64,000 bases of DNA from Mytilus trossulus (taxonomy: Eukaryota). Each line of letters opens with the position of its first letter. The first letter of the stretch is position 1. Under the pieces are notes generated by a model, which did no database searches, was not told where the DNA came from, and worked only from the letters and a program-made list of their open reading frames with translations. Positions 17,723-58,200 of this stretch are shown here, piece by piece. A program made the position numbers and the translations under genes. The stretch lies in NCBI RefSeq assembly GCF_036588685.1, contig NC_086376.1, forward strand, positions 74,751,630 to 74,815,629. Direction: 5' to 3'.

Positions 17723-18164
17723 AACTGATCACGGCTCCTAGTCAATATAAAATGCCGTAGTCGAGCGCACCTGCCACGACGTTTGGTATTCGAACTCACA
17801 ACTGACCGTCTCACGTTAACTCAGCACGTTAATGTTTGTCACACTATCTAAAAAAATAAATTATACCCGGGAATCTTATATGAAATGAATTCGTATCTTT
17901 CGTAGCAGTCATTCGATTCGAATTTCTTGTATTATATGTTTCTGGGTGGGCTAATATGAAATAAATAGTAACTTGAGACATTTGAAGAAAAATAGAATGA
18001 TTTCTAAATTTTGCATAGATAAATATATAATGACAATCAATTTCTATTAATAAATCTTATTCTGTCAACCATTTTGGATCAAATAAGGATGTAATGCTTG
18101 GAACAAAGATAACAGATGATAAAAATCTTTCGAATCGAGACGACAATACCAAATTTGGTCAGAT

Positions 18165-18297
18165 TTTAAATGCGCATGTCTATACCAATACATCCGTTTT
18201 TCCAAATTCACTTCCGGGGTTTGCCGGGTTCTGAATCACACCTTCGCTAAAAAACTGATATAAACTAAAATTTCAAGCATACCAGACATTCTGAAAC
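18165..18297 (+). promoter_or_regulatory. Putative WDR1 promoter / 5'UTR
   Basis: NRF1-like TGCGCATG (18171), CCAAT (18185) and ETS-type ACTTCCGG (18210) about 90-130 bp upstream of the ATG, in locally CpG-retaining DNA. Confidence 0.5.
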
Positions 18298-21200
18298 ATG
18301 ACAGATACAATTCCTAGTAAGAATATATATATTTCTCTCTTATTTTTATTTAAATTGTAAGTCAAAGAACACAAATTTGTACTAATCTGATGTTTTCCGG
18401 TTTGTTTACATCTGTAAATATTTTCTCTCTCTAAAGTCTTGTATAGCCATAGGACGGATTGCATAAAATGCTGATATAATTGTGTTTCCTCTTTAAGAAA
18501 ACAATTTGTGAATCAACAGGACGCACTTAGTTTCCCTGTTCTTTCATGTATTGATTAAAAGTTATGAAAGGTGTTCAACTGACAACTTTAATAGTACTAC
18601 AAAATGTACAGAACTTGTCAGAAGCCCCTCCCTTACCTTAAATTCTCCCTCGCCACGCTCGTCTGAATTTAAAACATTTCTTTACTAAATCCTTGGTATA
18701 ATAAATAAAACAAAACCTTAGATATAGGTTTAGTTGCTCGCAGTAACTTCGTTTTTCTTTTCTAGTAAGCAATGTTTAATAACATTATAAACCAACATAT
18801 TATAAATACAAACACATTTGTCCAATACATTTAAATGGACTATAATTAAACAATTCATAATCATATATATGTACACATTCTTATGACACAATAAACTGCA
18901 AAAACTGTCGTAGTTACTGTGAGCGAGCAATTTTCGATAAATGACACCCACAAATTTTCTTTATATAATATAACGGGACCCCACTTTTTAAACCGCCAAA
19001 GTATTTCACGAGCATATTTTACCCATCTATATTTATAACCAAAACAAGAACTTGTTATACAACTACTCTCACTAACCAACCTTGAACTTATAAATAGTAT
19101 CACAGGGGAAAAACCCCAAGTCTCAACGAAAAGAAATTTAATTATACACCATGCAGATTCATGCAATTTTGCCAAGGTGACAAGTTCAACATGGATATGG
19201 TTGAGATTAAACAACATATTTACTTATGTGGAAACTAACAACAATCCTTTTAGTTTTTGGGTTGTGCATATATATATAAAAAAAAAGATGATGTGGTATG
19301 ATTGCCAATGAGACAACTCTCCAGTCTCCACAAGAAACAAACGACATATGAATTAACAACTATACATGTAGGTCACCATATGACCTTCAACAATGACCAA
19401 AGCCCACATCACACATTCAGCTATAATTTAAAAGGCCCAAAATGACAATGTAAAACAATACACCTAATCGCTATTTTTTCCATGGGGGATAAGTTCTAAA
19501 ATTACACAACTTTTTCATCCAGTTGAAGCTATCTGGGACCCTGTTTAAACAATTCACCATGCATGATACTTTTTAATGAGACCTGTTTAAACTACCGTAA
19601 ATACTTCAAATAAAATATTTTTTTACTTCAATTTTAATTTCGAAAAAAGTGGATCATACTATATCAAAGTTTCTTGATGATCACTTTCTAAAGTTTTTTC
19701 TCCCTCAGCTCACTACTGATGACCTCCATTTTTCGGCTGGTGACCTAAACAGGAAGTTGTATAAATGACTGTTTTTCCCAGAATGGACTAAATAGCGATA
19801 AGGTGTATTCAAATTGACAAAAGAGAAAACTAATGGCTTTATATATGTACAAAAAAATAACAAAAAACAAATATGTAACACATAAACAAAAGACAAACAT
19901 TGAATCATTTACAGAATTCATAAGAAGAATTATGATTCGATAAAAATTTTTGCTCTTGGAAATTTCAAACTGCCATGAGCATAAAAAAACACTTTCTTTT
20001 TAATACATATAAATGATATTAAAAGTGGTTCTATACAAATGTATCCCAATTTTTTTATTTTATATAAAGTCTTTGGATTACCCATGATTGCTTAGGCCAA
20101 ATAAAAATATATGTGTGGTTCTAGTGACCCTACCTTCCCTACTTTTTCGTCTTGAAATTAGCCTACCCTAAAGATTTTATTGTCATTTTTCATCAAGCAC
20201 TGTTAAAGTCAGAATGATGCTCCCATAGACTCAATGCAAAAAAAAAACATAAAATATAAAAAAAAATCCCTACCTACTATGCCTACCTACCCTAACTTTT
20301 TTCAGATGTAACTGGAACAACACATACTATTTTATGTTGCCTTAAAGCAAAGGAAATTGTCAATATTTAAAACTCACGTTATATCTTCAACTTGCAGGAA
20401 TTAAATATGTTTTACAAGTAGCTTCAGTAGTTTTTACAAAGTACAGGGATACAGAAGCTGGATTAACTGACAAAATTATACTAAAAATGTTCAAGAATTC
20501 TGCAAATGACAGAAAAAACTTGAAATGTTATACATTTTGTATATAAACTGTAATATGTATCTTTTGTCTAGTTAACAAGAGAAAAGAATCGATTTTGAAT
20601 AAACTTTTTCTTTAACAGGATGTATTTTTGCTTCACTGCCAAGGACAACCAGAGGTGTCCCGATAGTGTTAGGAGGAGATCCCAAAGGCAAAAACTTTCT
20701 GTACACAAATAACAACAGTGTTTTTATTAGGGATATTTCAGTAAGTAAATCAAGTGGTTGCCCTTGAATTTGAATTAAACACTCAAAAGTCTGTTACCCA
20801 TTTTTGCTTTTTATGGGAAAACACACAATATGTATAATCATGGTAATATGTATATTCTTAAAATTCTAACCATGTTCAAATCAAGCAATTTATTGATAAT
20901 AAATCATGCTATATAATTAGGATATGAACAAAACATTCTTTGTTTGATGTTGCTGGTTTGTTGCCTTGTATGATTGGGTAGATAATTAGGGCTTATTTGG
21001 TAAACGGCATAATATGTTTTAGACAAGAATACTACAAAAGGAAATGAGTTTATTCACATATTTTTCACTACATTAGTTTTATCAAAAATAACAAAAGTTG
21101 CAGAAAGTAGTACGTACTTGTTGTGTGAATCTATCAGGTCTATATAGACAAAGGAAAATAACTTACAATTTGGCGTAAGTATCATTATGGGTGTTTCTTT

Positions 21201-24200
21201 GCTAAATACAAAACAGTGATTAATTTTTAAAAGTTTTAAATTCAAATTTGAAGGAATATTACTATCTCGTTGTGTGATACCAAGCACTTTGATTAAATTC
21301 TGTTTGGACTCTTTGTGATACTGTAAATTAAGAAATTATTGCGTGCATTTATTATTGCGATTTTTTCATTTAAAACTTGAATGCAATTTTAATTTTTACG
21401 ATTTTGCGAAAAGTCATGCTTAATTCAGTAAAAATATTACAAAATGCGAGATTTAATTATTGCGTTTACAACTCTTGCATTTTTCGCAATAATAAAAACC
21501 TCGCAATAATTTCTGAATTTACAGTAATTAATAAATGATATATTTTAGGACCCATCAGTAGCAGACATTTATACACAGCACTCACTCAATGCTATTTCAG
21601 CTAAATATTCTCCAAGTGGATTCTATATTTGTAGTGGAGGTTAGTAGCTCGATTAAATCTTAAGATAGAAAGTAGAGCATTAACTTAATGTACAAACAAA
21701 ACAAATGTATATATTTTGTTGACAAAAGAAAAGAAGAAATTATTGGCTTAACATACTGATCATAACTTCTTAACTTGTTCCCAGAAAAAATTAAATGTTT
21801 CTCAACTTACAAAAATCTAGAATTAGTTGTTCGCAATAGTGAAGCAATCTATGGAATTGACAAAAGTTTATGATGTACAAATGTCTTCTCCAAAAGTGGC
21901 GCAAGAGACTGTCTAGACCTTGCATGAGGTGTTAGCTTTTACTAATTTTTGCAGGCCCTAATAAGTATAATTTTTGGGGGAAGTAACGTCATTAATAATT
22001 TAATCATGAAAAATTGATAAAAAAAGAAGTATGGATTTACCATAAAACAATTGTGAAAAGTTTCAAACTGAAATACTTTAATTCCACTATACTTGATTCT
22101 GTGTGTTTAACTATTACATGTAAAATGTACACAAATAGATAAAAAAAAAAAATTTGGCATGAAAACTTGAAATACTTGATTTAATCAACAATATCTAAAA
22201 AAAGAGCCAGCTACAAAATTACTGACTGTACTCACTACTTGGGGCACTCCACCTTATAACATGTATAAAAACTGACAACCATGATATGAGCAAAGCTGAC
22301 ATTCGTCTTCAATGTTAAAAGACAAATAAACAATCAAATGTCAATATAAATTAAAGCATGCTTTTGACATACATGTAGCTGTTTGTATATTTTGTAGATG
22401 CCTCAGGAAAGGTCAGAATTTGGGACACAGTAAACAGGGAGCATATATTAAAGGCAGAATACCAGCCTTTAGGGGGTTGTGTCAAAGACATTGCATGGTC
22501 AGGTGACAGTACAAAGATTGCAGTATGTGGTGAAGGAAGAGAAAAGTATATATTTTAAAATTTTAGGTTTTGTAAAACTAAGTCTATGTCTTAAGATGGT
22601 TTAAGGTTTTCTATGAAGAAAAAGAAAAAATAAAGAATTTAAACGAAATTTCTTTTAATTAAAAAAGGGGTTTGCTTGTGAAATACTAGAAATTGTCAAT
22701 TTTTAATGTCAAGTTTTTTGTTTAAGTTAGTTTGATATGAACCAATTATGATAATATAGTTTATTTATACATATCAGTATGAAGATCCTTAAAAGGCTGC
22801 CCTCTTTGTCGAGCAACTTTGAATTACCAGTAGTAAGCAATGTTGCTGTCCATCAGATTGCCTTTTTCTGAATTTTCTGTCAACAGGCAAAACATCTCTC
22901 TGTGTGAACACTTTAGTTTATTATTTCAACAAAGCTTTCTGTATTTAACATTAAAATGATAGTCTATTGCATAACTGGAAACACATTTTTTTATGGAACA
23001 ATTATCATCTTTATACAAATATCTCGGTTTTGAATTGGAATTACACAGAAAAGTCATATAACCCTTGTTATGATATGATTATTTTTTTTTATAGAATTTA
23101 AGGTTATAAAAAAATAATAAAATATCTCATTTTTCATTTAAGGTATGCCCACGTGTTTAATATGGACTCAGGAACTTCAGTGGGAGAACTAAGTGGTGTG
23201 GGTAAATGTTGTCTGACAATAGCATTTAAAGAACAGAGACCATTTAAAATAGCTATTGGTTGTGAAGATAAGAGTGCTGCATTTTATGAAGGCCCACCAT
23301 TCAAATTCAAAACATCATATAAGGTATGATACAATGTATATAGATTTGACTTTAGGATTTGATATAAATAACCATTCCCAACATCACATAATTAAATTTT
23401 GTTGTATAACTCCTAATCAGATGTCATTTATCCTGAAAAAGAGGTAATACTGTACCAGAAGGAACTCTACAATCTTCTTGACCAATTTTTAAGTGTTCTA
23501 TATTGTAGATAAAGCATCTGACATTGTCCCAGTATTATTTTCCCATGGACAAACATAAAGAAAGGGGAATAAAATGACTTTTTGGCATCTTTAATGATTC
23601 TGAATCAACTGAAACAAAACATGCACCACCCTAATCTTCATTTGGTCCTTTTATTGATGAGTATATAAATTTATTTTCTGAACATCAAGAATATGAATAA
23701 TTTCTATCCAGTCTAGATATATGGGGATTAAGCAATTATAATCAGTTGCATAGAACAGTAGAACTATTTTTTTTCCATTTGGTAGTACTATAAAATCATG
23801 TCTGGCAGTACATTTGTCAGAAATTGAAACTTTCCTTAGTGAAGGTATTAGCAAATATAATCTTGAAGTACACTTTATTTATTATTTTTCAGGACCATAC
23901 CAATTTTGTTAACGCAGTTAGATATGCACCAGATGGAAGTGTATTTATAACAGGAGGTGCAGATTGTAAGGTAAGTAATGAGTGTGTGCACAATTTGATA
24001 GTTGGTCAAATACATACCTCCTGTTTACAGATACTGGAATTTATCCATATCCTGGTATCAAAGAAATATTTTCACACAATTGTCAATTGCTATTGAACAA
24101 AATTACTTTATATTTAGTCTGCAGTTTGACAGTGATGAAATGTAAGGTGTGTGAGCTTTTCCCCATAGTTCAGACACCTGCTTCAATGCATTACCTTACT

Positions 24201-27200
24201 CTGAATTAAGAGTTGGGTAAGCTCTGGGTATAATCTTTTTAAAAATAAAAAAAATCAGTGTTTAGTGTGAAAAAAACTTCAGATTATTTTCTATTCATGA
24301 AAGACTCCAAAATAATTTACCCACAAACATTAGTTGGTTTACGGTAGTAAGAGAGCATGCAAACATGAAAATCACATTTTTAGCATACCTGACATACCTT
24401 CATTTTCTTTTTTTCAGGCTTTTGTGTATGAAGGTAAAACTGGAGAAATGATTGGAGAATTGGGTTCTCCTGCCCATAAAGGTGGTATTTATGGAGTAAG
24501 TAGAACTAAAACCTATGTGACATGCTTCTTCAAAGTGGTATCTGTAGCATAAAATAACTTTTATGTCATGCCATAGACTGAATTCTCAATTTTTGTTCAT
24601 TCAATATTGAGTATTTTCAACAATTTGTCTATAATACTCAATATTCAAGGCAATCATTTATGAAAAAAATTTCTGTACTGTATGTGTAGGAATTGTAATA
24701 CATGAAAGATAAAGTAAAATGTATACATGTAAATGGATTTTGATCCTGTCACACATTTGATTTTCATCAAAACATTGGTTAATTTAGGAATTTACTGTTA
24801 GTGTTATAAAAAAAGGGAATGGACTAATACCCCAATGAAGAGAATTACCATAAAAAAAAAGGATAAAATTGAAATGTTTCATCAAAAAGTTTATAAAATT
24901 GGGAAAGGACCATTAACTGGTTTAGAAAAATTGAGTTTCATTACTTTGTTACAGATGTGTTTTAGTCCAGACAGTTCTGAAGTGTTAACAGTATCAGCTG
25001 ATAAAACAGCCAAAATATGGAATGTGGCTAGCAGAGAATTAGTTGTGTAAGTAAATAATAGTGAATTAGCTTATATGTGTTTGTCTAAAATTGTACTGTC
25101 CCAAATTAGACTGTTAATTTTCTGTTATAGCTGATTATAGTGTATGGGCTTTCTCAAAATATATCTGCTTACTTTTATAGTAACATTTTTGTTTAATTAC
25201 AGTTCCTTTGAAGTGGGGAAGACAATGGACGAAATGTTGGTTGGTTGTCTATGGCAAGGAGATAATATAATGGCTGTAGCTCTCTCTGGATACATATATT
25301 ACTTCAACAAAAATGATCCATCTACACCACTAAAGGTTACAAAGGTAATATAAGATCACTTTTACATTATTTGATATTATCTCTAATGAATCTTGGTGTT
25401 CTCAATTCAATGATCCAGAATTCGAATGCACAACTTCCTGCCTGTAGGAATTCAAAGTTTAAAGAGAATTTTTGAGTTATGTAAAAAAGTGTGAAGTCTT
25501 ATTGATTAAATTTATTTTGGTTAAACTCTCAGCCTGATTGATAACAATATATATAATTTTCTGACCATAGAATAAGTTCAAATAGGAAAGGATAGAAATT
25601 ATATATTTATAAATACCTTGTTAGCAAAAAAATGAAACATTATGAATAAAAGAAGGTTAAAAAGAAACATCATTTAGGGTGATTAACCGTATATTGCCCT
25701 CATGGAGAGGAGACAGCTAAAAATGATATGCAAAATGAGATCTACCAATAGGCAAACAGTAATGCATTAAACATGTTAAAGGTAAACACAATTATCAAAA
25801 TGGCATAAGTTGTCATGTGAGCAATTCTATCTCTTAGGAGCCTGTTGTCAACAAGTTCTTTAAAATTACATAGAAAATTACATGTTAAGGAACCCAAAGA
25901 AAAGAAATCACATGCTAATAATAAAAAACGATGTACAAGCATTTTTCTTTCTTTCAGGGACACAACAAACCAATTACAGCTATGGCACTCAGTGAAGACT
26001 GTTCTACTATTTATACAGGGGACCAGTCTGCCAGAGTTGATATCCTTGCATTTCATCTTTGACTTTTATCATATGATATGAAGTTGTTGTACAAAGCAAT
26101 AATGCAAAGACCTAGCCTTTGTACAGTACTGCTGAAAATCCATTATTTTGAAAAGCAATGGAAAAGATTTTTCATTTATATCTGGGTTCTTTCTGAGTAT
26201 TGTGTATGAGTATTTTCTAAACACAGTTTTTTGTTTTCTCCGTTTTAAACAAAAGGAGGGACAGTTTTAATCTTTTCAATGTCAATTGTTCATGTGTAAC
26301 TTTCTCCTTAAAGGCATGGAAATAAGCAGAGAAATGTAAAGTAGTGCTAATTTGCAGAATCAAAATTCATACTGTAAACATAACAAAAATTAAACTCTTG
26401 TGAAAATTTCCCAAAAGACAGATGATAGGCATTTCTCAGGTTTGCCAATCACAGATCTGTTTTCCCCAGAGTATCTTGAATAGAACGGTTGGTATACCAG
26501 CATGTGCAATGCACAAAGTTGTTCTACTCCTTTTTATTAAACAAAATGTTCCTTAACCTTTTTTACTTCTGTGGAATGCTGCATCTGGAGAAAATGATGT
26601 GTTTAATGGTAAAGGCCATAGCAACCAAATACAGGATATGGTTGTTGCAGACGGTAATCTGATCTCTGTTTCCATGGACGACACAATACGATTTACAGAT
26701 CTTAGTCAAAATCAATTTGGGTAAGCTTTTTCACAAGATTTAATGTTATTGAAACAGAATAATAGTTCATGAAAAACCATTTCAATAAATTCAAGTCTAG
26801 ATGCTAAATTCAAACCAGACACATTTCATTAAGTCATGAATTAATTCCAAGATGTAATCTAAAAATCTGGTTACTTTACAAAAAAATACATGTACTGAGG
26901 ATTCATTATTTATTTGGATACCAATTTTCATGGTTTGTTGGTATAGTTTAACCACAAAATTAAATGTTCAAAGAATGATGAATTGTCGATAGGTTTGTAC
27001 GCAGACTTTAGCAAAACCACGAAATTAAATATCCACGAATATGCAAGTTTTCTTTAGTCCACGAAAATTAGTACCCACGAAAATAAATGAATACACAGTA
27101 TAATAATTTACAGACCTAAAAACACTTCATTTATTCTTGATTCCTGGCTAAATAGAAAAAAAATAATAAGAAATGAGAATTGTTTATTTACAGGGATAAC

Positions 27201-30200
27201 AGTATAAAATTAGATTCTATGCCAAAAGCAGTAGCAGCTAATGGTTCAGGACTGGTAGCAGTAGCATGTATTAACCATGTAAGTACTTCTCTATCAAATG
27301 CAGTCTTCAAAACTGAAACAAAAAGTTCAAAAGTTTTATTGATTTTCTGTATTAATATAGACAATTTTTAAATTATTTCATTTTAGCTGAATTTGAACAA
27401 TCACATAAGATATTTTTATTTTTGAATTCAAACTTTTCAACTTAAACTTCATTTCAGATCATAGTATTCAAGAATGGAACGAAGATAATATCTCAAGGAG
27501 TAAGCTTTGAGCCTGTCAGTGTAGATGTTTTAAAGGGAGGTTCAATTGTAGCAGTAGGAGCTCAAAAGGTATGAAATTAAAAAAAAGTAGATTTTGTGGT
27601 TGAACTCTTACAAGCAGTTCACCTAAGATAGTTATATCTCAAAGCTTTTGGTTTTGTACATTAATGCTGCTTTTAGGTAGATTATTTAAAACAATTTTTG
27701 GATTATTTGACAAATTGTAGTTAATATCATTTTGATATTTCAAAAACTTAATAAAAAGAACATGTCACAGGGCTATTTTCATTATACAGATTGTGCAAAA
27801 GTTTGTTTGAAGAAAATTAAGAAACATAAAGGATAGAATTATCATAAAATATGCTCTTTGAAAATAAAAATAAAATAAAAATGGGGTCAAATGTATAAAA
27901 TAATTTCTCTTTTAATTCCAGGGCAATAAAGTACATTTGTATGATGTTTCAAGTGGAGGGCTGACAGAAGTGCATGTTTTAGACAACACAGGTGTTGCAT
28001 CAGCTGTCCAATTCTCACCTGATGGGCAGTATATAGCCACAGGGGGTGCAGACAAATATGTTAGACTGTTTTCAATGGCAAATTATGAGGTAAGTGTAAG
28101 AAACAGGGGAAAACAGGGGAACATGCAAATACACAGCAAAATTTGCTCACATGAATTTCACATGAAATTCACGTGAAAAATTTCCATTGTAACCATTAAA
28201 AACTTGTCTTGACCTTAACTTTAAAAAAATCTAAATAATTTCTAATTTCTAATTATTGAATACATATGTAACTTTTGATATGAAGCTTGGAAACTTTCGT
28301 TGCAAGAATGTTCTTTTCATTTCATTGCCTTCAAGTTTTTGCTTGACTTTTATTCTATTTAATTGAAACAGGGCACAGATAAGATTAGAATCAGGAAATT
28401 ATTTTTAAATATGGCGTAATTCCACAATACCAAGTTTTAACTGGAAGATACTGTAGATTCATTTATTTTCCTGGCTACCAATTTTCTTGAATTCAGTTAA
28501 ACTAGCATTTATGGAGATTTATACATGTGAGATTCACCTCAATCGAGCTTATACATGAAAATTTTCATGTGAATATCAAATGAATCTTATGTGAAATTTT
28601 TCACATGAATTTCACGTGAAATTTACAACAAAAAATTTGAAATTTTTCAAGTTTTTAATTAAATTTGAAAATTTAGATGTTGTTTAAAATACTCTATTTA
28701 AAAAATTCATGTGAATTTCACATCAAAATAATTTACGTGATTTTCATTGAAATTCACAGAAACTCATTTCACTGAGCTTCACGTATAAGCTTGTTTGAGG
28801 TGAAATTCATGTCACATGAAATCCATGTGAGCGAAATTTGCCTGTGTACTTTCGAGTCATTATTATTTGTGGGAAACCAATTAACATGGATTTCATGGAT
28901 AGAATTGAACCACAAACTTTAATATTTGACAAATTACAACTTATTATAGTATTATATGCAGATTCTTTTAAACCAAAAAGAATTATTAAAAATCTCCATA
29001 AATGCTAGTTTAACTGAATTCAAGAAAATTGGTAGCCAGGAAAATAAATGAATCTACAGTATCTTCCAGTTAAAACTTGGTATTGTGGAATTACGCCATA
29101 TTTAAAAATAATTTCCTGATTCTAATCTTATCTGTGCCCTGTTTCAATTAAATAGAATAAAAGTCAAGCAAAAACTTGAAGGCAATGAAATGAAAAGAAC
29201 ATTCTTGCAACGAAAGTTTCCAAGCTTCATATCAAAAGTTACATATGTATTCAATAATTAGAAATTAGAAATTATTTAGATTTTTTTTAAGTTAAGGTCA
29301 AGACAAGTTTTTAATGGTTACAATGGACAGACTTAGCACTAGTAATCAGTGAATTTAAGTGATGTCTATTTTTCATTTAGTTGGCTTTATACATTACTTA
29401 TATCAATTGCTTATAAGCATTTTTTTCACTTACAATTTGTTGTTTTTATAGTTAGAATGAAAACAAAGAATATGGGGTATCCATCCATGACACAAAATCT
29501 CTTATAATTATCTATATCAAAAGATGAAATCTGTGATTTGTACCTTATAGTATCAAAGAGTGTAAAATACTGTGTCCTTGGATTGCTGTCTCATTTACAT
29601 ACATGTATATCTCCTGTTTGTAGAGTCTCTAGTTGTATCATGCATTAAAAATTCAATTCAAAAGTATTATCTTTTAAAATACATGTAATTTCAATGAATA
29701 ATATAGAATTCTGTATGATATTTTGATTTCTAAATGTGTTTAAAACGTTATGTTTCAGAATCTAATTAATTTCCCAGCACACACAGCTAAAGTTACATGT
29801 CTTGCATGGAGTCCTGACTCATCAAAGTTTGCTACTGGTAGCATAGATACTAATATTGTAATTTGGAAACCAAGTCAAGGAATGTCACCAAAAATTATTA
29901 AAGGTAGGTTAGATATATTTGTAGTGGTTAATAATAAAGTGACATAAACAATAGTCCATTTGCAAATTACCGATTTGATTCAGTTATTACACACTTTTAA
30001 AAAGAATTACTTCCCTTTGTGAATCCCTGACTGGTTCCATACCGGACAAAATTGGCTTTTGCCAATGCAAAGCATAGCAAATTGAATGTGGTGTATAGGC
30101 GGTTCAACTACTTGTTTATGAAAAACAATTTCTGATGACAAAAGAATTTAGCTTAACAAATTAATGTAATTAAAGGATTTAAAAACTTTAAAGTTTACTC

Positions 30201-34400: not shown

Positions 34401-34822
34401 ATCAACCTCAGTGTTCAATTAATTCTTTTCTAGATACAAAAATGAAACTTTATTTTACAAAATCAAATACAAACAGTTTTCTCTTTTGAGTGTTTCCAAA
34501 ATATATATATTCCAACAAAGCATTTCAACTTTTGGAAAAATGAAATAATTTAATTTTGTGATGGTTTACAGTATAGGTTCGACTTGCAGGCACTTTTCAT
34601 AGATTAAAAAAAAACATGACAAGATCCTGTGGTTTGACTCATTGTTGAAGATGCTGCTCTGACCTATAGTTGTTTATATACTTGCCTTTTGGATATATAG
34701 TTGTCTCATTTGCATCAGGCATCATTGTAATATTAAACCAGAGTTAAGTGGCTTTTTTAAATCCAATTCTATGCTTCCTTTCTTTCGTTATATTTCTTGA
34801 TCAAATTGGGAGGTGTTGAATA

Positions 34823-35020
34823 CTGTGGATTCATTTATTTTCGTTGGTACCAATTTTCGTGGATTACGGAAAACGTGCATGTTCATGGATATCAAATTTC
34901 GTGGTTTTGCTGAAGTCTGCATATAAGCCTATAGAAATTTTTTATTCGTTGAACATTTAATTTTGTGGTTCACTTGTAACCACGAAAATTGGTATCCAAT
35001 GAATAATAATGAATCCACAG
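34823..35020. mobile_element. Well-preserved copy of the CTGTGGATTCAT MITE
   Basis: TA-CTGTGGATTCATT ... AATGAATCCACAG-TA. Confidence 0.9.
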
Positions 35021-36129
35021 TACTAGAACAACACCTGAGATTAACTCCACCACATGCAACAAATTACTTCCTTAGATGAAAATTCAGATGGATTCAAAGA
35101 ACAATTGTTGTTATAACTGATATGGTAGGTATGAATCTTGGTTGAAATATGTACTACATATTGTATTACTTGAAAAATCGTAAAGATAAAAGATATCAAA
35201 GGGACATTCAAGCTTATAAGTTGCAAAAATAAATAGACAAGACCATGACAAAAACTAAATATGACCAAAAGACACAAAATACAAAATAGAAAAAAAATGA
35301 AAGGATAAGCAACAGGAACCCCACAAAAAACTGGGGTGATCTCATGCTCTGGAAGGGTAAGCAAATTCTGCTCAACATTTAGCACCCTTTGTGATGCTCA
35401 TGTAATTACAAAAGCAATGATAAGTCTAATTCCATAGGTCACATTTGAGGAAAAGAGGATTGGGATAGTGGTTATCAAGTAAAAAGTCATGATTTTAAAT
35501 GCAAACTCTAGAATATAGTATAAACTTGGAGATATTATACACTCCATATGCAGGTATTGCTTGTATGTTGAAAAATTTAATTGGAAAGTTCATAATCACA
35601 ATTGGGAAGCTGAAATCATCTATTGCCTATTGTCATAAAGTTTTGTTCTCAACTGACTGTGACACTCATAGTCATTGTCAACTTTTAGATGATGCCTTTG
35701 TCTATTAAAATGTCTATTTATTTTCAAGTTAGATGAGATGAAGATGTGTTCAACATAGTAAAAAAAATGAATAAGGGTTAAGTTTCTTTTGTAAAAAAAA
35801 TGTGATCCCCAATTTGATGACAGAAAAAAATCTGAATGCTAACCCTTCCATACGTGGTAGGTCTTTTCACAACAGAACACCACTGCGAACTGCCGAACAC
35901 CACCGAACACCCCAAAAGTTTACATGTTTACAGTTTCCACACATTATACCTTATATAGTGTTTAATGTTTGAAAAATAAATCTGGTTGATAGCATTGAAA
36001 AACTATTGAATTTGTTCACTCTATTGTATGTTTTGTTTGTTATTCTTTTTTTTGAAAAGGGAAAGATTTATCTGTAAGGAACGATGTATAATTTAAGAGT
36101 GTTTATTTTCAATTTCAATCTTTTTCTAG

Positions 36130-36400
36130 ATATAGGCCCCTAATCCGGAAAAATATCACCTACCAACCGTTATCGACTTTGGATTTTCTGATGCATTCTG
36201 GGAGGCCAACCTGTTAGGTCATATTTTACATCTTTAGGGAGTGCCTTTGACAAAAGAATCACTATAATCAACTTTTTTGTTCTATCCTTAGTTGAAACTA
36301 AACCAGATATACCACTACCCGATCCTTGCAATGCTTAAACTGCACTTACGATACACCCCCTAATTTACATATCGCACAAACATGGCGGACCTTGATCTGT
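36130..36400 (+). promoter_or_regulatory. Putative TBC1D12/14 promoter / TSS region
   Basis: Local CpG retention and a YY1-type AAACATGGCGG at 36378-36388, about 300 bp upstream of the coding ATG. Confidence 0.4.
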
Positions 36401-36677
36401 CAAAAATGGGAGGAACAACAAAAACATCTGAATATAACAACAAAACATGGACTTATGAAACAAAATCAAGTGTCACAGTCTCTGTTTATACATCATTTAT
36501 TTAAGTGTGAGTTTAAATAAGATAGTTTGGCTCTACTCTGCCTCAAGTTATATGGCTTCTAAAGCATACCCGACAACAATAAATTTTTGAAGGAAAGAGG
36601 AATGTTTATTTTAGCGTGATGTTCTTTGAGCAAACCACAAAAAACTATGAATAACCTTTGTAAAACGTTTTATTATA

Positions 36678-39600
36678 ATGGGAATTTTCCAAAATTCTTT
36701 TGACCATCTCGAAAATAGAGAAAAAATGCGCATTGGAATGTCTGAGAACACAGATTCAACATCTAGTTTTCATTTAGTTAATTCAAAAGTAGATATGGGG
36801 CCAACTGATTCAGTGTCATTTGTGAATCCAAATCCAAACAAACTAATTCACAAGGAGGTTGAAAAAGGGAAATTCAGTTTATCTCTCCGTAATGACTATG
36901 AAAGAGATCTTTTAATAAAACGCTTGGATGAAAGTGCCGACATTTCCAGTGGTGATGACAGTTCTCCTTCCAAAAGTCTATGTCCAGCAGATGCTCAAAA
37001 CATAGATGATTCACAGGGGTCATTTGATAAAATGGAGATTTATAATGACGATGAAAAAGAAGCATATGATAATACTGACGATTGTGACAGTGATGGGAAA
37101 GAAGCAAAGTCCACTTTGAAACCTGTTGATTCAGGATTGATTATTTCACCAATTAGATTAACAGAGGATATGCCTATCAATATCAATGATGATGAAACAA
37201 AATTTTCCTCAGTGACTAGTAATATGCAGCAAAAATTGGTATATATTCCAACAACAAAACAACTTGTAGCAGAAAGCTCAAGTCATGCAAATTATTCTAA
37301 TACTCATGATCAAAATGCACAAAATACAAATAGACCTGACCAGTTGAATGAAAAAGATAGCAATGATTTAAGTTCTTCAACAGAAACAATTTTGAATGAA
37401 AATGGTGGTGTTAAATTCAGTATACAAGTGAATGACACGTCTAGTCTTGGTGGTGAAAGTGATTCCCTTTTGTATCTTAGTTTAAGCAAGAATAAAGACA
37501 ATGATCAATTATCGTTGAATAATTCTGAAAATGATACATGCATGCCCCGTATAAATACTGGAGATTCTTTACTTCGGACATTCAATGATACTACAAGTCT
37601 TTCTAGTCTTAGTACATGTACAGATTTTTCAATATCAGCAGCATCTATGGACGAAGGTTGTGATGGAACTGGACTTTGTATAGATACTGGGGATGGAGAA
37701 TTTATGGAGATTAGTTTACATTCCAGAAATTCTTTTGAAAGAAAAAAGAACCCATCTCAGGATAGTGGGTTTGAAGACAGAGGTTCTAAATCTAAAAAGA
37801 AAGGATTGTCTGTGTCAGATTTTTTAACCAGGTATGGTTATTTTTCATCAATATCTATGTACATTAAATGTTAGTTTTCTTCTCAATTAGCAGTAATAAA
37901 AAGAAATATTTTATATGAATCAAATTTAAAGTAGATACAATTTCAAAACTTTTGGATATAAGTCCATGAGCAACATCCAAATAAGTCTCAAAATTCTAAT
38001 GGTCAATATATGATTTTCAACAATAGACAAATTGTCTTAACAACATTAACAACATGCTTTTCTCTGAATCGTCTCTATTCTTGAAAAATTATCAATAAAA
38101 ATATTAAAAAAAAACTTTACCTAAGCTGGTTCATAGGTTGACTTGTGTTCAGTATGTAAACACATGCAGCTGTGTCTGATCTGATGTAGGACATTAAATG
38201 TGAAGCTGTGTAGAGAGGGAGACCCTTTTCAGTTCAGTATTAACTATTCATGTACATGTAGACATACATGTACATGTACATTTATTTTCTGATCATGCCA
38301 TTTGCTGTCATTTTCTCGCCTTCATTCTGTTTTGAACTACATTTTTTCCGCACATTGCAAATATACACAAATGTTGTACATTGCATTAATTGTTATTTTT
38401 CTCTTCATGAATACTAAGTAAATATATGTGTCTTGAATATTGGCCCACTGGACATTGAAGTTGAACTGTACAAAGCTTTTAAGAAACAGTATGTGTATCT
38501 TAACCTGCATGTTCATGTACAATGTATATGTATCAGACAATACATGTACATGTGCACAACCATTGAATGAATAAATGTAAACTTCAATCTTGGTCCTGTA
38601 CATGTACAAATGTACATCATGTACATGTACATGTGTATTTGCAAACTGTTCCTGCTTTAATTAAAGCAATATGAATGATGTACAGGTACATTTCATATAC
38701 ATGTACATGTAATCATGAAGAAATTGCTAACATGAATGTTGCTTAGAAATTATATATAACCCCCTTCCCTCCTTAGATTTTATAATTAAAACCAGTTATT
38801 AGACTTGCACAGGTCATCCTTATGGTAAGAGCTTGTTCTCAATTTGTTTAAACAATTCACATTTGATGATACAAATGTATGAATGACAAGATGTGCACAG
38901 AACAGGTTTAATACATTTTAGGTATGGTATTTTACATCAATACAATGATCATTTTAATAAATGCCTTTTGTCATGTTTGTAAAAGTACGGTTAACCTGTA
39001 TATTTTCTCTTAGTTTGCAAATGTACATGTATAGGTATGGTACATGAAATAAAATTCAATACATGTAATAGCAGGTCAGTTTAAAAAGGTTTGCAGTATA
39101 TTGTGTACAAGCCCTGTTAAATTTACACACACACACTTTATAAGGAAGGAAATCTTGTAGTTATATCCTGTTCTAAAAACACTTGTTTAAAGTTGTGTAA
39201 GATTATAAATTATATTTTAATAATGTCATGAATGTTCAGCAGAAGGATCCTTTTATAATCTGTTTCTCAAATATATCTTTGTTAAATTTATAAGTCAATA
39301 TGGATTCAGAGAAAGTGAGGAAGGTAATAGGTTGAGGTAAATATTATTTTAAGATTTTTTTCTTCAGAGTTTTTAATTTTTTTGTTTGTCATCATTTATC
39401 ATACCTCCCCTTTTTTTGATGATCAATACATTTGAATGGGTACATGTACATATATATAGTTGGAACTCCCCTATATCCTGGGTTGGAAACCCCCATTTTA
39501 AGAATGACTGGATCTGTCTCTGGCTTTTGGTGACATATATTTGCTTATATTTACAGCATTTTGTCTCTCCAATTAAACCACATCTCATTATTTTATAATG

Positions 39601-42600
39601 TATATATCATTGTATATATTTGGGATGAAATTGAAAATTATGTTTATTTTGGATTTTGTGAAATTTGAACTGTATTTGACATTTCTTCATGAATGTGACA
39701 AATGTACAAAGTACATGTATATATATATGTTAAATGTGTCAGGTTTAGATTTAAAACCATGAAATACATTAACAAGCCAGGTAGATTGGCTCCTCCAGAA
39801 TCATTTGAAAATGTGTCATTCAAAACTAAAAAATACAAGACTTTGCACTATGTATATTTACATCATGTATATATACATGCATATTGTATGTCATGAGAAA
39901 TATTTTCTGAATTACAAATTTCTGCCAACTAATAAAGTTATTCTCCTCGAATCCTCAACCCCTAGATTTGTCATTGCTTATAAAGAAACTATAAACTAGA
40001 ATCAGTACTACAGAATTCGACTTTCAGAACTATCTGGGGTAAACATTTACTGGTAATTAAAATGTCTACTTTAATGAAATTTGGATAACTTTTTATGTTA
40101 TGATTAACGTAATGTGAATGTGAGCCAATTGACCAGATGTCCAATATGTTTCTCCGTTAAGAATGTATCATGTATTTCTAATACCACATAAATACAACAG
40201 GGAAAAATGTGATTCTACTTTGTAAACCTGTAAAGGTTGTAATGAGCCCCATCATTCAGGATTGATGTAGTGGTACATGTACACATTTAAATAAGGTTAC
40301 TGATTTGTGTTGCAATATATACAGATATACATCATGTACAGTGTACATATATATAATTTTATCTTATTGCAAGGGGAGAAAATTTATGCTGTATCACACT
40401 TAATGTGATATTAAGTTTGATTTATAACTATTTTTAACAAACAGCCTTACATGCATGTACTTGAACTGCTTAATTCATCTGTTCATTAATAGTATTTATT
40501 AAATCTCAGTGTAAATCATCACACATATATGTTGTACATTAATACATGCAGGATTAATTTGATTTTTGAAATGGACAAAGAAAGGTAACTCTCAAAAAAG
40601 TTTGTTTATAACATTTGACTTTATGCAATATTTAAGTGCATGATTTGATGTGTAGTTGAAAAAGATGTGGAAACATTTATACTTCATGGACATGATGATG
40701 CATAAGTATTTTGTACTTATACCATGTATACACTTCTTTCACTTGAAGTTAAAAGAATATGTACAGTTGTACATGTATTATGAAGCCTGAAGGTTTTGTT
40801 GGCAAACAATATTGGTCCAGATCATTTGTATAACGAATCACATAAAAAAAGGAGGCATTGTCACTGTCTTTGGCCACATTTCCAAATATACATATACATT
40901 TGTCAATTAGAATTAGATCAAATTGTAGGTTAAACTAACACATCTTGTTATATTTGAAATAAAATACACATGTATTGAACATTAAAAGATACATTAGTAC
41001 AACAGTTCAACTTCTGTTAAATAACTTGCTAAATAGTGAATTCGACAGCCCAAGGCTTTTGAATGTCCACTAGACAATTATGATTTTAATTTAGTCATAT
41101 ATGGACAGTTTAGTTTTATATTGCATTTCAAATATATATTTAAAAGCTGACTAAAAAATACTAGTAATAGTTGAATGCATGCCTATTACATGTACACAAG
41201 GAAACAGCAGAAATAGACCGATATAAGTATTGTCATGCTTAAGGAAATCTTTTAGAAAATCAGGAAATAGATAAAATCGAAGACAATTGATTGAGTTCAG
41301 TATTTTTTTTCGTAATTACATGTTCATCAAATTGATGTTTAGTAATTAACATGCAATACATTAAGATGGATTATTTACCATCATAGATATAACAAAAGTT
41401 GGGGAAAGTAATAATTATTTTGGTTTTCTCACCAGTCTTACTAAATAAAATGTTTGAAACAAGTTTTTGAATTAAAAGTAAATACTAGTACTTATTGGAC
41501 CTTAAAATTTGTATTGTGGCAAATTGTTCTTGCAGTTTAAGTTACAATTTAAAATTGCTTATAGATTCTGATGGTTTATGCACCTTCAATATCTAGGTCT
41601 TTGATGTAAACTGGTTAGATCTAAGATTTATTTTGATATTTTCCTGCACCTGCTTAATTGATTTATGTAGATGTTACATCATTTTAAGACACATTTTTCT
41701 CATACAAAAATAAATACAGTTTCAATTGATATTCTTATATTCACCAATAGTATATATAGTAAGACACTTTCAATTAAAGACAGTAAAACGCTTGCCAAAG
41801 TGGGGCGTCCGTTTGGCTGTGCGGGACGTATCAAGTTCGCAGTCACGTCCGGTTTAGAAGGGGGATGTTAAATCCGATGCCTCATGTACATGTAAAGAGA
41901 GTGCCACGCTCTTTGCACGTTAAGAACCCTTGCAACAAATCTTTGAGGGGTCCGTAGGTGGCCTGTTGCAAGGCAAAATTTCTGTCCCTATCCAACATAC
42001 GCTTATTTTCCAGTGGCAGTCCAAATTTCTCCGACCATCATCCCAGATGGCCTCTATTGTATCAACCTACCTATTTTATTTATTGTGAACTTGTTCTCGT
42101 CCTGAATATGCATGAAATATTTGCCACTGGACGTTAAGCAACCAACAATCAATCAAATCAATTAAAGACAAGTTTTAATTAAAGATGCCTAAAATTATGT
42201 AAAAAGCCCTATGAACATTGATGTAGAGACAGGGTCCCCCCATCAAAGTTGAATAGTAGCAAGGTCTCTACTCCATGAAGAAATGTTAGGAACCACTATT
42301 TACAGATAAATATTGAGTTTGACCCATTATACATAATAACAAAGAACAAGTTAAATATTTGCTTGCATTATATATAAAGACACTCATTGACAATATGCTT
42401 TTATTCATAGCAAATTTAAAATGAACTTGTGAATGTTCATACCTTAGTTAGAAATGTGGATATAAATTTTAATCATAATTATTATTTAAACAAAATTATG
42501 TAAAATTGTGGCTAGAGTAGCAATCTAACAATCTCAATATATCTCAGGATGATAGATAGATAAAATATTGATTTCATCAAATTATCATATAGATCATTAT

Positions 42601-45600
42601 TTGTTTTTGTTTTTCAAATCAATACACTTCCTTTTCCCTTTTACTTAGATTGTAGTTCTAGGTTATATTAGGTCTTCAATACTGATCATTCATTTTAAAA
42701 CTGAAAATACCTCAAGTGTTCAAATTTGCCTTAAGCATGTAGAGATATTTACGAAGTCATTTAGATTACATATATGGTTGTCATAAATAACTAATGACCT
42801 TAAACAATGACTATGAAGCTTCTTGTTAAATATGTAGATCACATTTTATGTTGCAGAATGTTTTAAAATACTTCAGTAATAAAAAAAAGATTGGGTCTTG
42901 ATTAGAAGTTTAACTGTATAACATCTAACTGTAAATTTTAGGCCTTTTAAAGATGAAAACAGAAAGTTCAATTAAATGTTGAACAAGCTATTAGGATAGA
43001 ATTGATCAATCCATGAATTTCATTAGTGTGAATATTGATAAGAACTGGAGAACTGTAAATTTTAGGCCTTTTAAAGTGAAAACTGAAAGTTCAATTAAAA
43101 TGTTGAACAAGCTATTTGGACAAAATTGATAAATCCATGAATTTCATTAGTGTAAATTTTCATAGAAACTAGATGCAAATTCACTGTATTGTTATATAAT
43201 TATATAAAAGGTATCATAAGAAACTGAAGGTACCATTTTAATTAAGCCATATATAGGAAATTGACAATCATAAAAGTAAATTGAATCTATCTTGTATATA
43301 GATTTGAATTAGATTTTATAGATGCACTTTGTTCAAATAGCCTAATGACCCTTAAAAAAATGATTTAGAAATATTTTAAGCTGATATTGAACAGTTTTTT
43401 TTAGGTTATATATTATTAAGAATATAAACAGGCAGAGAGTCATATCATTTTTACATACAAAAAAGTCATGACTTATTAGTTAACAATTGTTTGAATATGT
43501 TAGAGAAAATTCTGTTCAGATAAAGCTTCATGTGATAAATTCATTCTTATACAATGTTCTAGTTTGTTATTTCAAATCATTGAAATGGATTAAGTCAGTT
43601 TAGTGGCCATGGTATGTCAATGATACATGGTATGCAGCATATATATAGGCACATCTCATTCTACAGGGATATTATTTGCTCCGGCCCCCTCATGCAGTCC
43701 AGGTCCAATGAACACTAACAAAGTCATCTTGGGATAACATTTCAGTCATCAGCTTCATGGAACTCGCATATTGATATTATTTATAAAAAAGCATGCTCTC
43801 GTCTATCTGTGCTTCGTCAAGTTAAATATTTATTAGATAGGAGTTCACTTATACGTATTTATTATGCTTTTATTAGACCTATATTAGAGTATGGTGATGT
43901 TGTATGGGGCAATTGCTCCCAGCACGAGTCTGAGCTTCTTGAAAGTATTCAGATAGAAGCCGCTAGAATTATTACAGGCTTACGACGTAATTCCTCCAGA
44001 CAAAAACTTTATATTGAATTAGGTTTAGAAACTCTGGAGAATAGACGTAATAAACATAAGCTTATACTATTCTATAAAATATTAAATGGGATGACACCTG
44101 CATACTTATATGAGTTAGTCCAGCCATATCTTCCCAGACAAACCCCTTATACTTTGAGGAATGAAAATAACACTTTTCATCCGCCTCTTGCTAGAACTAG
44201 CTCTTATTTTAATAGTTTCATTCCTTCCACTATAAGACTTTGGAATAGTCTTCCTTTGAGTTTACAAAAATCCCCAAGTTTGGGTATATTTAGAAGTGGA
44301 CTGGAAAAGTTTTATAGGACTGATGATATATTTAAACCTTTCAACTATGGGATAAGGAAACTTAATATAAGTCATTGTCAACTCAGAAATAATGCTAGCA
44401 ACCTAAAATCTCATCTGTTTAACCAGTTCTTATCAGAGAACACTGTTTGTGTAAACTGTAATCACCCTGTTGAGGATAACAAACATTTCTTTTTCATTTG
44501 CCCTAAGTACAATGATGTAAGACAGATCCTTCTTGATTCCATTAACTCCATTGCTGACAATGTTGATATAAATATTGAATTATTACTTTTTGGAAACAGA
44601 TTATTTTCATATGATATGAATATTGCTATTTTTAAATCTGTTCATAAATATATCAGTGACACTCATCGTTTTGTTTAAAACTTACTTATTTTTTGCTTCA
44701 TTTAGTTTTATTTTTTATTTTTTTTTCTTCTCCACTTAAACATTAATTCATTTTATCCACTAAGCAAGCTTAGTGTCTCTTTCAAGCCATATATATATAT
44801 ATTTCTAATGACTTATAAAGGATATTTGCATGTTTCAAGGTTCTTGAATATATGATGAGTAATTGCCTATATATACTTAAATATACTTTGCATTTAGTAA
44901 GTAACACTGTAAACATTTATTTTCTTGTGTGTGCTCATAAGTAGCATGCATATTCCACTATATTGCATTATTTTAAATACAGTTGTTATAATTGAATTAT
45001 ACCTTGAACATGTAATATGGAGAGAGCTTTTATAGGCTGTGCCTGTTGCTCAATCCTTTTCATATCTTAATGAATAAAATATGTTTAAAATCTAAAACAA
45101 AGTACAGAAGAGATAAATTTTGAATTATTTAAAACACTAAATTTTCTCTAAGATACAAGAATATATCTGAATTTTTAGACTAGAGAAAATTGTATATACC
45201 GTTACATTGAGTATTCTATGTTAAGATTTGAATGTTATAGATATTATCTAGATTCAAGCCTGAGGCCTTCATACATAGAAAATGCATTTACAGTTAAATA
45301 AGGCATAAAAGTTATTCATGAAAGTCAAACAATTTACATGCATTTTACGACGCTGAAAATAGTGAGGATTAATATATGTACAAACCTATAAAATTTGTTA
45401 AAAAAATGAGAGAATGAAAGAAAGGGTTTGGAGGAAGAATACTGGTGGAACCTTGTGATACAGGTTTATATCTAGTACCCTGGGGTAAAAGCTCTCTGAT
45501 TTATATACCTCTGTTATATAATGTTTATTGCATATGCAGAAATATTTGTTATGATAATGCACTATGCAATATCACCACCAGATGGTTTTTTAACTAAATC

Positions 45601-46239
45601 ACTTTGTGCATACTATGCATACAAATAACATCAGTAAACTGCTTTTGTTTAATGGAGCGATTTTTTTTTAACCACAGCTATCTTCGAAGATTTACATATG
45701 ATGTCACGTTGGCTAATTATCCAGCAACAGGAACAGAGCGATACTAAAACTAAAGTTAAAAAAAAAACTTTGCTCACTTTCTTCAATGATCATAATAATC
45801 AATAATGTTATTTTAGAAAATCTTAAGAAAATCATATAATAAAAAGAATGTAATTGGTTATTTTTTTCAGAAATCTGTTTTCCAGAAAAGCTAAAGAATC
45901 TGAAGATGATGCTGAGCAAGGATGGAAATTATTTGGTAGAATTCCTCCAAAGCAAGCTCCTGATAAAGATCCTCAACAGATAACACAGGAATTCAATAAC
46001 AAACTCAGATCAGTAGCTCAACCAAAGAATAGTAAACATACTGATATAGAAGTCATGTCTACCACTGCTCTTATTCTAGAGAATAGACCACAGTAAGTCT
46101 TAACTCAGATCAGTAGCTCAACCAAAGAATAGTAAACATACTGATATAGAAGTCATGTCTACCACTGCTCTTATTCTAGAGAATAGACCACAGTAAGTCT
46201 AATACAGTAACATACTGTCAGTGTTCTGTCTTCATACCC

Positions 46240-55200: not shown

Positions 55201-58200
55201 CGTCGTCCATCGTCTGTCGTCCGTTGTCTTCGTTGACTTTTACAAAAATCTTCTCCTCTGAAACTACTGGGCCAAATTACACCAAACTTGGCCACAATCA
55301 TCTCTGGGGTATCTAGTTTAAAAAATGTGTGGCGTGACCCGCCAAACCAACCAAGATGGCAGCCATGGCTAAAAATAGAACATAGGGGTAAAATGCAGTT
55401 TTTGGCTTATAACTCAAAAACCAAAGCATTTAGAGCAAATCTGACATGGGGGTAAAATTGTTTATCAGGTCAAGATCTATCTGTCATGAAATTTTCAGAT
55501 CAATCAGAGAACCCGTTGTTGGGTTGCTGCCCCTGAATTGGTAATTTCATGGAAATTTTGCTGTTTTTGATTATTACCTTGAATATTATTATAGATAGAG
55601 ATAAACTGTAAACAGCAATAATGTTCAGCAAAGTAAGATTTACAAATAAGTTAACATTGCCAAAATTGTCAGTCGACCCCTTTAGGAGTTATTGCACTTT
55701 AAAGTCAGTTTTTAACCATTTTTCCTAAATTTTATATATCTTTTACAAAAATCTTCTCCTCTGAAACTGCTGGGCCAAATTACACCAAACTTTGCAACAA
55801 TCATCTCTGGGGTATCTAGTTTAAAAAATGTGTGGCATGACCCGCCCAACCAACCAAGATGGTCGCCATGGCTAAAAATAGAACATAATGGTAAAACACA
55901 GTTTTTGGCTGATAACTCTCAAACCAAAGCATTTAGAGCAAATCTGACAGGGAGTAAACTGTTTTAGGTCAAGATCTATCTGCCCTGACATTTTCAGATG
56001 AATCAGAGAATCTGTTGTTGGGTTGCTGCCCCTGAATTGGTAATTTTATGGAAATTTTGCTGTTTTTGATTATTATCTTGAATATTATTATAGGTAGAGA
56101 TAAACTGTAAACAGCAATAATGTTCAGCAAAGTAGGATTTACAAATAAGTTAACATGGCCAAAATTGTCAGTCGACCCCTTTAGGAGTTATTGCCCTTTA
56201 AAGTCAGTTTTTAACCATTTTTCTTAATTTTATATATCTTTTACAAAAATCTTCTCTTCTGAAACTGCTGGGTCAAATTACACCAAACTTGGCCACAATC
56301 ATCTCTGGGGTATTTAGTTTAAAAAATGTGTGGCATGACCCGCCAAACCAACCAAGATAGCTGCCATGGCTAAAAATAGAAGATAGGGGTAAAACACAGT
56401 TTTTGGCTTATAATTAAAAAACCAAAGCATTTAGAGCAAATCTGACAGGGAGTAAAATTGTTCATCAGGTTAAGATCTATCTGCCCATACATTTTCAGAT
56501 GAATCAGAGAACCTGTTGTTGGGTTGCTGCCCCTGGATTGGTAATTTTAAGGAAATTTTGCTGTTTTTGGTTATTATCTTGAATATTATTATAGATAGAG
56601 ATAAACTGTAAACAGCAATAATGTTCAGCAAAGTAAGATTTACAAATAAGTCAACATGACCAAAATGGTCAATTGACCCAATAAGGAAGGAGTAATTGTC
56701 CTTTATAGTCAATTTTTAACTATTTTCATAAAATTTGTAAATTTTTACTACCGGTAACATTTTCAATAGAAACTATTGGGCCAAGTTCATTATAGATAGT
56801 GATAATTGTAAGCAGCAAGCATGTTCAGTAAAGTAAGATGTACAAACACATCACCATCACCAAAACATTATTTCGTCATGAATCCATCTGCTTCCTTTGT
56901 TTAATATTCACATAGACCAAGGTAAGCGACACAGGCTATTTAGAGCCTCTAGTTTTATATTCATATCACATATCAAGACATTATTATGAATATCTCTGTC
57001 AATTTTCCAGCAAATCTTATTTATTATGTATGGTTATATCAGACTTTTCGTAATTGTTTGTTTCTTTATTTCAGATGAAGGTTTATTTTCATACGTTTGA
57101 AGATTTTTTTGACGAGAATATGCCTGGATTATACTCACATTTTAAAAAACACAAAGTCACTCCAGATCTGTATATTACTGAATGGTATGCATTATATTAT
57201 TTCACATACATAATACATATATTTATGGCAAAGTATGAAAGATACTAAAGCCCTGTTAATACTATTATTGTGAGGGCCATTTCTTCTACAGTGTGCTTTA
57301 GAATGTTTCACAGCCAAACTCAATAGATTAGTATAAATTATGATTCTAATATGACTTACTTCTATTGCTTTATGAATAAACCCGTGCTCTAAATCCAATA
57401 AAAAAATTTTGCACATCCGTATTTTGACTACTGCAGAATAATGAATTTTATCAAATTTACATGCATTTAATATATTTCATTAACTTAAAACACTCCCAAA
57501 CTCTTAAATGATGCACATGTTGTTACTAATTCATTTATGATGACTGTAATGTGTTGCATTCTGAAATTGACATATTTGACCTAGATACAACAACTGTTCA
57601 TGCTGGCTGTTCAAAAACTTCTCCCTCTGAAAAATCACAGTGCCAAATGTTTGCTTCTTTACAAACATAAAAAAGGGGTTCATGGAAGAGCCTACACAAT
57701 CACTTAACCCTTATACATATCTGACATAAAAATGACCTTAATTGTCCTAATCAGAATCGAAATAATTGATGCAAGCTATACTTTATTGTCGTTTTAACAT
57801 GGGTAGGCATTATATTCATGTTATTTTAGCCCTTACTGTTGCTAGGGCAAAAATAATCACAAATATAATGCCTACCCATGTTAAAACTACAATAAAGTAT
57901 AGCTTGCAACAATTATTTCTTAAATAAACAACAACTAACTCAAAAACAATAGACATAACGCACTGATAAAAGAATTCTCTCAGTTTGTAGTCTTGCTGAA
58001 AGTCAATAAAAACTGACAAATGAATCATGTTCTACCCCTACTAAAGTATATCAGTACACATCCAATTTAGTGTAAAGACATAAACAATCTGAGAAGGGAA
58101 TGCTCACGTTCCTATTCCATACCTTTATACACTGACAATTAGATATTTTATATTCATGTCATCAAACTTTTATAGCACTATGATCTGCATCTACTTTATA

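Follow-up and report, generated by a model that had tools for sequence, protein, structure and literature searches.

The 64,000-nucleotide stretch of Mytilus trossulus DNA analysed here (the window; NC_086376.1:74,751,630-74,815,629, G000:C4, in a genome of 1.30 Gb) carries two genes on the forward strand, a WD40 gene that we take to be WDR1 and, downstream of it, a RabGAP-TBC gene, a candidate TBC1D12/14. Our subject is the eight-letter word TACATGTA, in which CATG stands between two TA dinucleotides and which crowds into one intron of the TBC gene. Judged by comparison of repeat copies, the word is here largely a six-base insertion (CATGTA) at TA.

The window holds 26 copies of TACATGTA where 3.3 are expected from an order 2 Markov model (2.3-7.4 over orders 1-4). 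They are distributed unevenly, with one in positions 1-19,000, seven in 19,001-31,000, one in 31,001-38,200, 16 in 38,201-41,900 and one in 41,901-62,000. The original observation that the word is rare in the first 19 kb and frequent at 38.2-41.9 kb is thus borne out; the word positions that it gave are all correct, except that 22114 is 22115. Genome rates were taken from 740 kb sampled at round-number positions on 13 chromosomes. The hot spot, at 43 copies per 10 kb, lies about 22-fold above the sampled rate (0.7 expected). Outside the window TACATGTA is about four times too common (143 against 35 expected, order 3), which extrapolates to 170,000-190,000 excess sites in the genome. Also raised in this sample are TACTAGTA (41 against 14 expected), TACCGGTA (11 against 3), TACATTGTA (42 against 23) and, weakly, TACAGTA (189 against 158); most other CATG palindromes (XY-CATG) are near expectation and lack an excess of the TACATGTA type. 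TACTAGTA and TACCGGTA, proposed as further footprints, are present in the window where they were said to be, but their counts (three and one) do not exceed the genome rate (3.5 and 1.0 expected).

At 19363 the word was described as a six-base insertion relative to a reverse copy of the same repeat near 34661. The six-base difference is real, and 62 of 74 paralogs lack these bases. Across the genome this test TA is empty in 10,253 copies of the repeat and expanded to TA-four bases-TA in 84, the filler being CATG in 67 of the 84 and never CTAG or CCGG. The empty repeat contains no sequence able to template CATG. Among the first 100 of 237 fillers of 1-10 bases, counted by copy, CATG occurs 22 times, CATTG four times, CAATG twice and CATTTTG once, and CAG, CTG, CAGTG and CACTG are absent.

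The same comparison was extended to 1.8 Mb unselected for scars apart from the window, scoring only TACATGTA sites with at least two paralogs (n = 46). Most paralogs have an empty TA at 13 of these sites, the word is shared at 3, a different word of the same length stands at 6, and 24 are undecided; for twelve control words, an empty-TA majority was found at 1 of 275 sites. The claim that such words arise by insertion at TA therefore stands, chiefly for CATGTA. CTAG and CCGG insertions at TA also exist and are rarer (empty-TA majority at 3 of 18 TACTAGTA and 1 of 18 TACCGGTA sites, with 2 of 25 for TACA(A/T)TGTA), the window's own examples being candidates. The TACCGGTA at 56749, in a repeat that we assume to be HINE/Helentron-like, had been read as interrupting a Helentron; most genomic copies with these flanks share it (Table 1), so it was inherited with the repeat subfamily and is not a demonstrated fresh scar. 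The extra CATGTA at 41883-41894 may be an insertion, or a duplication after CpG decay. Elsewhere, a repeat copy in L268 (near 5280) has TA-CCCCGG-TA where its paralogs have TA, a longer CC..GG filler.

The filler letters are the outer two bases of each end in resident TA-flanked elements: CA..TG in L161 and the CAGTCATGGG family, and CT..AG in L158, L165 and MITEs (miniature inverted-repeat transposable elements). No CC..GG element was identified among the resident TA-flanked elements examined. Of the 149 scored DDE_3 matches in the genome, 30 loci were inspected and three hold full TA-flanked elements (Table 1). The CAGTCATGGG family is a 485-base MITE with a 53-base end in common with a broken Tc1 frame in L199, and one repeat copy carries at the scarred TA the filler TA-CAGTCATG-TA, the first eight bases of the CAGTCATGGG end (35-base match). 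The general reading of these words as TA, terminal bases and TA thus agrees with the ends of Tc1 elements that target TA and reside in this genome, and the three MITEs of the window have the TA-flanked ends attributed to them. Their proposed role as donors is not supported: the CACAG family has just one further end in all DNA examined, and such a low-copy element is unlikely as the main donor. The inverted duplicate inside the CACAG element (341 bases, 99% identity), of which contigs of three runs skip the 28183-28523 copy, may be a recent rearrangement or an assembly artefact. Another TA-flanked element (L139:194-2300; 2,107 bases) has perfect CAGTAAATAGGTGAAA ends and no open frame above 100 codons.

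The flanks of the CAGTCATGGG family suggest a link between scars and new insertions. CATG precedes 8 of 72 exact ends, compared with a background of 0.63% (18-fold, p = 2e-8), and the eight flanks are all different; the whole TACATG precedes 3 of 67 distinct ends (background 0.21%, p = 4e-4). TATA, which precedes 20 of the 67 (16-fold), is preferred as strongly. One insertion sits at a CATG-TA that belongs to the host repeat from the start; what is preferred is therefore the sequence itself, which scars create. Scars are therefore likely to attract new insertions, in line with the proposal that footprints supply new targets. The ends of CT..AG MITEs show no preference for CATG or CTAG flanks (1 and 1 of 51). 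We consider it probable that TACATGTA is the scar left on excision by Tc1/mariner elements that have CA..TG ends, and that the taste of these elements for CATG-TA likely makes scars the next landing sites.

Table 1. Features of the window and of three element loci in the genome (window positions; strand + or not assigned)
Feature	Positions	Strand	Remarks
TACATGTA as +CATGTA insertion	19363..19370	.	At TA of high-copy dispersed repeat (about 19280-19440)
CT..AG MITE, CTGTAAAT family	21321..21524	.	TA-flanked
WD40 exons of upstream gene	23794..29947	+	Seven TACATGTA in 19-31 kb
CACAG..CTGTG element	28132..28846	.	TA-flanked; interrupted at 28183-28523 by inverted copy of 28987-29327
CT..AG MITE, CTGTGGAT family	34823..35020	.	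TA-flanked
AACATGGCGG	36378..36387	+	Putative start region of TBC gene; hot spot 1.9-5.5 kb downstream
Long open frame, probable first coding exon	36651..37831	+	407 amino acids stop to stop, no Pfam match; GT donor at 37832
TACATGTA hot spot	38201..41900	.	16 copies in 3.7 kb, first half of intron 37832-45870
Impure CATGTA array	38249..38281	.	5.5 periods, 77% matches; run X1 differs by a 40-letter stretch and one unit
Longest stack	38599..38637	.	Five TA-separated CA..TG units: CATG, CAAATG, CATCATG, CATG, CATGTG
Pure two-unit stack	38698..38711	.	
TACATGTA in repeat	39441..39448	.	10 paralogs shorter by 10 bases
Two TACTAGTA	41159..41490	.	Starts 41159 and 41483; no paralogs
Extra CATGTA in high-copy repeat 41781-42156	41883..41894	.	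Six letters missing in 76 contigs from 4 runs
TACCGGTA within repeat	56749..56756	.	4 of 5 copies with these flanks carry TACCGGTA
RabGAP-TBC exon of hot-spot host gene	57054..57248	+	Connection to first exon putative
L161, TA-CAG..CTG-TA			1,353 bases; open DD34E frame
L165, TA-CTG..CAG-TA			Open DD34E frame
L158, TA-CTG..CAG-TA			Full TA-flanked element

Several results weigh against the excision reading. At the test TA, 14 of the 20 scarred copies examined derive from one event amplified within a larger repeat (common flanks), and with the six independent copies this makes seven independent events. Of the 13 sites with an empty-TA majority, about three are noisy and two are a single event; of all 46, 6 arose by substitution and 24 are undecided. 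None of the 20 candidates fetched at the test TA is an element with a TA duplication and matching CA..TG ends; the other variants listed there (100 of 259) have short fillers or differ from the empty site by point changes, and a further search at the test TA gave four matches, with seven in its reversed control. About six intact TA-flanked CA..TG elements occur in 1.09 Mb (plausible cases among 20 candidate pairs, the majority chance or scar pairs) compared with 237 TACATGTA in 1.07 Mb, whereas in rice mariners insertions outnumber excisions by 2.6-2.8 to one (PMC4423477). In worm germ cells, Tc1 breaks are described as leaving varied footprints that depend on polymerase theta, not stereotyped ones (PMC4490562). 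Variant units stand beside scars 4 times against 2.35 expected locally and so are not raised, and on 472 scar sides no CATG-CTAG or CATG-CCGG neighbours occur. Lastly, a first promoter proxy, 18 unique-looking CAAAATGGCGG sites from 100 of 910 listed, gave no downstream excess (26 downstream, 39 upstream), this proxy being unvalidated and few of its sites resembling real starts.

The repeated unit that accounts for the 14 amplified copies is at least 9 kb long, its copies are 98% identical (L201, G000:C6:79870000-79879999; L202, C2:82644000-82653999), and it contains a Tc1-like frame together with the scarred repeat. Chance matches made up most of the first 100 of 268 candidates listed at the test TA and of the 20 fetched; the remainder included one inversion, one insert of 62 bases and, in L059 (G000:C3 near 16914027), a 1,183-base element whose inverted ends read CATACATGTGA and whose target duplication is six bases long.

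The word had been said to be often iterated as (CATGTA)n and to seed microsatellites. However, no pure run in the window exceeds two units, and in 1.73 Mb pure runs number 400 single, 16 double and none of three or more; the arrays are short stacks, not true microsatellites, and scars carry little weight as a microsatellite source. CATGTA adjoins a scar on 18 of 472 sides, where the global rate predicts 1.6 and the local rate 6.4, and one two-unit stack (L078) stands at a TA that is empty in all five paralogs. Contigs of sequencing runs (X1, X3, X11 and X16) show allele differences without polarising gain and loss; X11 and X16, in which fewer than one-fifth of the words are present, span the hot spot only partly, their uncovered parts being uninformative. 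In X1 and X3 contigs the longest stack is represented by one unit, a second haplotype (joint 38606-38681); X1, which may be the source sample, also has the reference form. Several six-letter gaps occur in hot-spot contigs (gap lengths only), and an X16 contig skips 38348-39098 (751 bases, including most stacks), with 126 other letters in place.

Such stacks might owe their growth to replication slippage after a scar has seeded the word, with no repeated transposition, an explanation that we hold to be a serious possibility although somewhat short of probable. Identical neighbours are enriched over the local expectation and variant ones are not, the CATGTG, CACATG and CATCATG units resemble short duplications, and unit number varies between haplotypes. 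The absence of any run of three (400, 16, 0), though, fits a constant chance per side without acceleration, and elements are found sitting beside scars. Because variant neighbours are not raised and mixed ones are absent, re-insertion is not separated from slippage in the stacks. In the 3' half of the hot-spot intron, where the scars stop, lies the end of a long interspersed nuclear element reverse transcriptase frame (319 amino acids, 43719-44678; weak zf-RVT match).

The original prediction also proposed a bias towards the bodies of housekeeping genes. A bias over whole gene bodies is not supported: the CpG-poor body of the TBC gene has one TACATGTA in 20 kb (41,901-62,000), and the peak lies instead near the 5' edge of genes. 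The hot spot of the window stands downstream of AACATGGCGG, which is presumably a YY1-like 5'-end motif. In L267 a TACATGTA cluster 0.9-4.2 kb past the AACATGGCGG word mirrors the window. A second promoter test used 18 small-GTPase loci chosen from 150 listed before fetching. Twelve of them were CpG-poor, and in 11 CpG content defined a 5' edge, a proxy for gene start in a small sample. These genes contain 53 TACATGTA in 55 kb within the first 5 kb, 34 in 91 kb further in and 20 in 63 kb upstream; the 5' peak is seen in 8 of the 11 (Wilcoxon p = 0.03; 0.004-0.032 across six threshold sets). Other CATG and plain TA are flat along the GTPase genes, TATATA is also raised near the edge (p = 0.002-0.08), and extant CT-MITE ends show no clear 5' peak, with 7 in the first 5 kb (55 kb in all), 5 further in (91 kb) and 11 upstream (63 kb). 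In this small sample of CpG-poor genes, scars are densest 2-5 kb in from the 5' edge.

This crowding could reflect retention and not targeting, through first introns that are older with less turnover, a greater supply of TATA targets, or selection on the word as a site bound by proteins. We regard this as rather unlikely. The TATATA rise, the three GTPase genes of 11 without a peak and the distribution of CT-MITE ends are as retention would have it, but plain TA and other CATG are flat, and the hot spot is partly polymorphic or missing in other runs, which speaks against strong conservation. Within the same TBC gene, a perfect 100-base tandem duplication (46002-46200) spans an exon end and its donor, followed by a 35-base C run at 46237; it may be a recent exon duplication or an assembly artefact. 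Another TACATGTA, at 37613-37620, lies inside the long open frame, where a six-base scar would preserve the frame; scars in coding frames could give proteins two extra codons.

Less probable still is another TA-directed process that writes CATG without a lasting insertion, such as abortive integration followed by reversal, the work of a transposase that is domesticated or of Tc1 type, or another class of element with CA ends. A tri-allelic TA (empty, MITE or footprint), which the original prediction called for, was looked for at the test TA and not found among the candidates listed (100 of 268) and the 20 fetched; one near case lies within a TA run. This, the excess of scars over intact CA..TG elements (about 25:1 or more) and the lack of CAGTG or CACTG among the listed fillers would suit such a process. 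Yet the three kinds of filler correspond to the three kinds of end that TA-targeting elements should have, the genome contains intact Tc1 elements with CA..TG and with CT..AG ends, one filler equals eight bases of a real family end, and neutral accumulation would account for the ratio without a new enzyme.

Substitution in methylated genes, by CpG deamination of TACGTGTA, TACACGTA or TACGCGTA to TACATGTA, is very improbable as the general origin: density is three to four times higher in CpG-poor bins and at 6 of 46 sites the paralogs carry a different word of equal length, but the most CpG-poor class is less dense (2.4 per 10 kb at observed/expected CpG below 0.3) than the next (4.4 at 0.3-0.45; 1.0 where CpG-rich), most XY-CATG palindromes occur about as often as expected, the density of other CATG does not change along genes, and substitution cannot yield empty-TA paralogs. 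CpG decay was rejected as the main source, the CG-ancestral same-length pattern (CG to CA/TG) holding for one tandem pair among the 46 sites.

Under the excision reading, an element would enter at a TA and duplicate it, as seen for elements in this genome; when the transposase cuts it out, both flanks would be left with a CA overhang of two bases, as established for Tc1; and end-joining would fill both overhangs to give TA-CA-TG-TA, sometimes with an extra A or T at the joint, matching the variants seen. By the same route, the rarer words with CTAG and CCGG would come from elements ending in CT..AG and CC..GG. Scars would come to exceed intact donors because they are near-neutral and persist while long insertions are lost. 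Re-insertion beside a scar, perhaps with slippage, may build stacks of two to five mixed units, and germline chromatin near 5' ends likely favours insertion or the fill-in repair outcome. More tentatively, and with somewhat less than even confidence, we propose that stereotyped fill-in end-joining of Tc1 breaks in the mollusc germline has left in the order of 10^5 inherited, near-neutral scars, which map transposase cuts to a zone lying 2-5 kb into active, methylated genes and made sharper by feedback, each scar forming a target that the transposase prefers.

If so, past transposition can be counted from an eight-letter word even after the elements have gone, and sequence alone can test where DNA transposons land or excise in an animal germline before selection removes them, and which repair pathway that germline uses. 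TACATGTA would then be expected to turn up when promoters and first introns of these animals are searched for motifs, without having a regulatory role, and a six-base peak is predicted among indels. The chemistry is already known; scale and placement are the new part. In literature mostly outside subscription journals, and without supplements, we found nothing on genome-wide TACATGTA scars in molluscs or footprints as microsatellite seeds, nor the inherited, genome-wide, 5'-biased and self-attracting form of scar.

In Caenorhabditis elegans, the letters of the Tc1 scar are CATG. Tc1 excision produces non-complementary two-nucleotide 3' overhangs (PMC4490562), and 78% of somatic excisions leave a +4 scar (PMC13148408 citing Eide and Anderson 1988). 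The worm system resembles that of the mussel in its TA target, its dominant four-base filler and, presumably, its two-nucleotide overhangs (PMC13148408, PMC4490562), but its +4 scar is somatic and its germline products are varied, whereas the stereotyped form in the mussel is inherited. Sleeping Beauty and Frog Prince likewise leave a TA duplication plus terminal bases, with C(A/T)GTA footprints; theirs is a three-base filler (PMC3878927), whereas CAG and CTG are missing from the mussel fillers listed. At one Triticeae intron site, Stowaway shows terminal-base footprints within TA..TA and an element beside an older footprint (PMC1925063); that is a single plant locus, whereas in the mussel the signal spans the genome, CATG-TA is preferred by measurement and scars are unevenly placed along genes. 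Rice DNA transposons provide a comparable genome-scale record of excision, in which most excisions are imprecise (8 of 94 perfect) and insertions outnumber them (PMC4423477), whereas in the mussel one filler is dominant and scars far outnumber donors.

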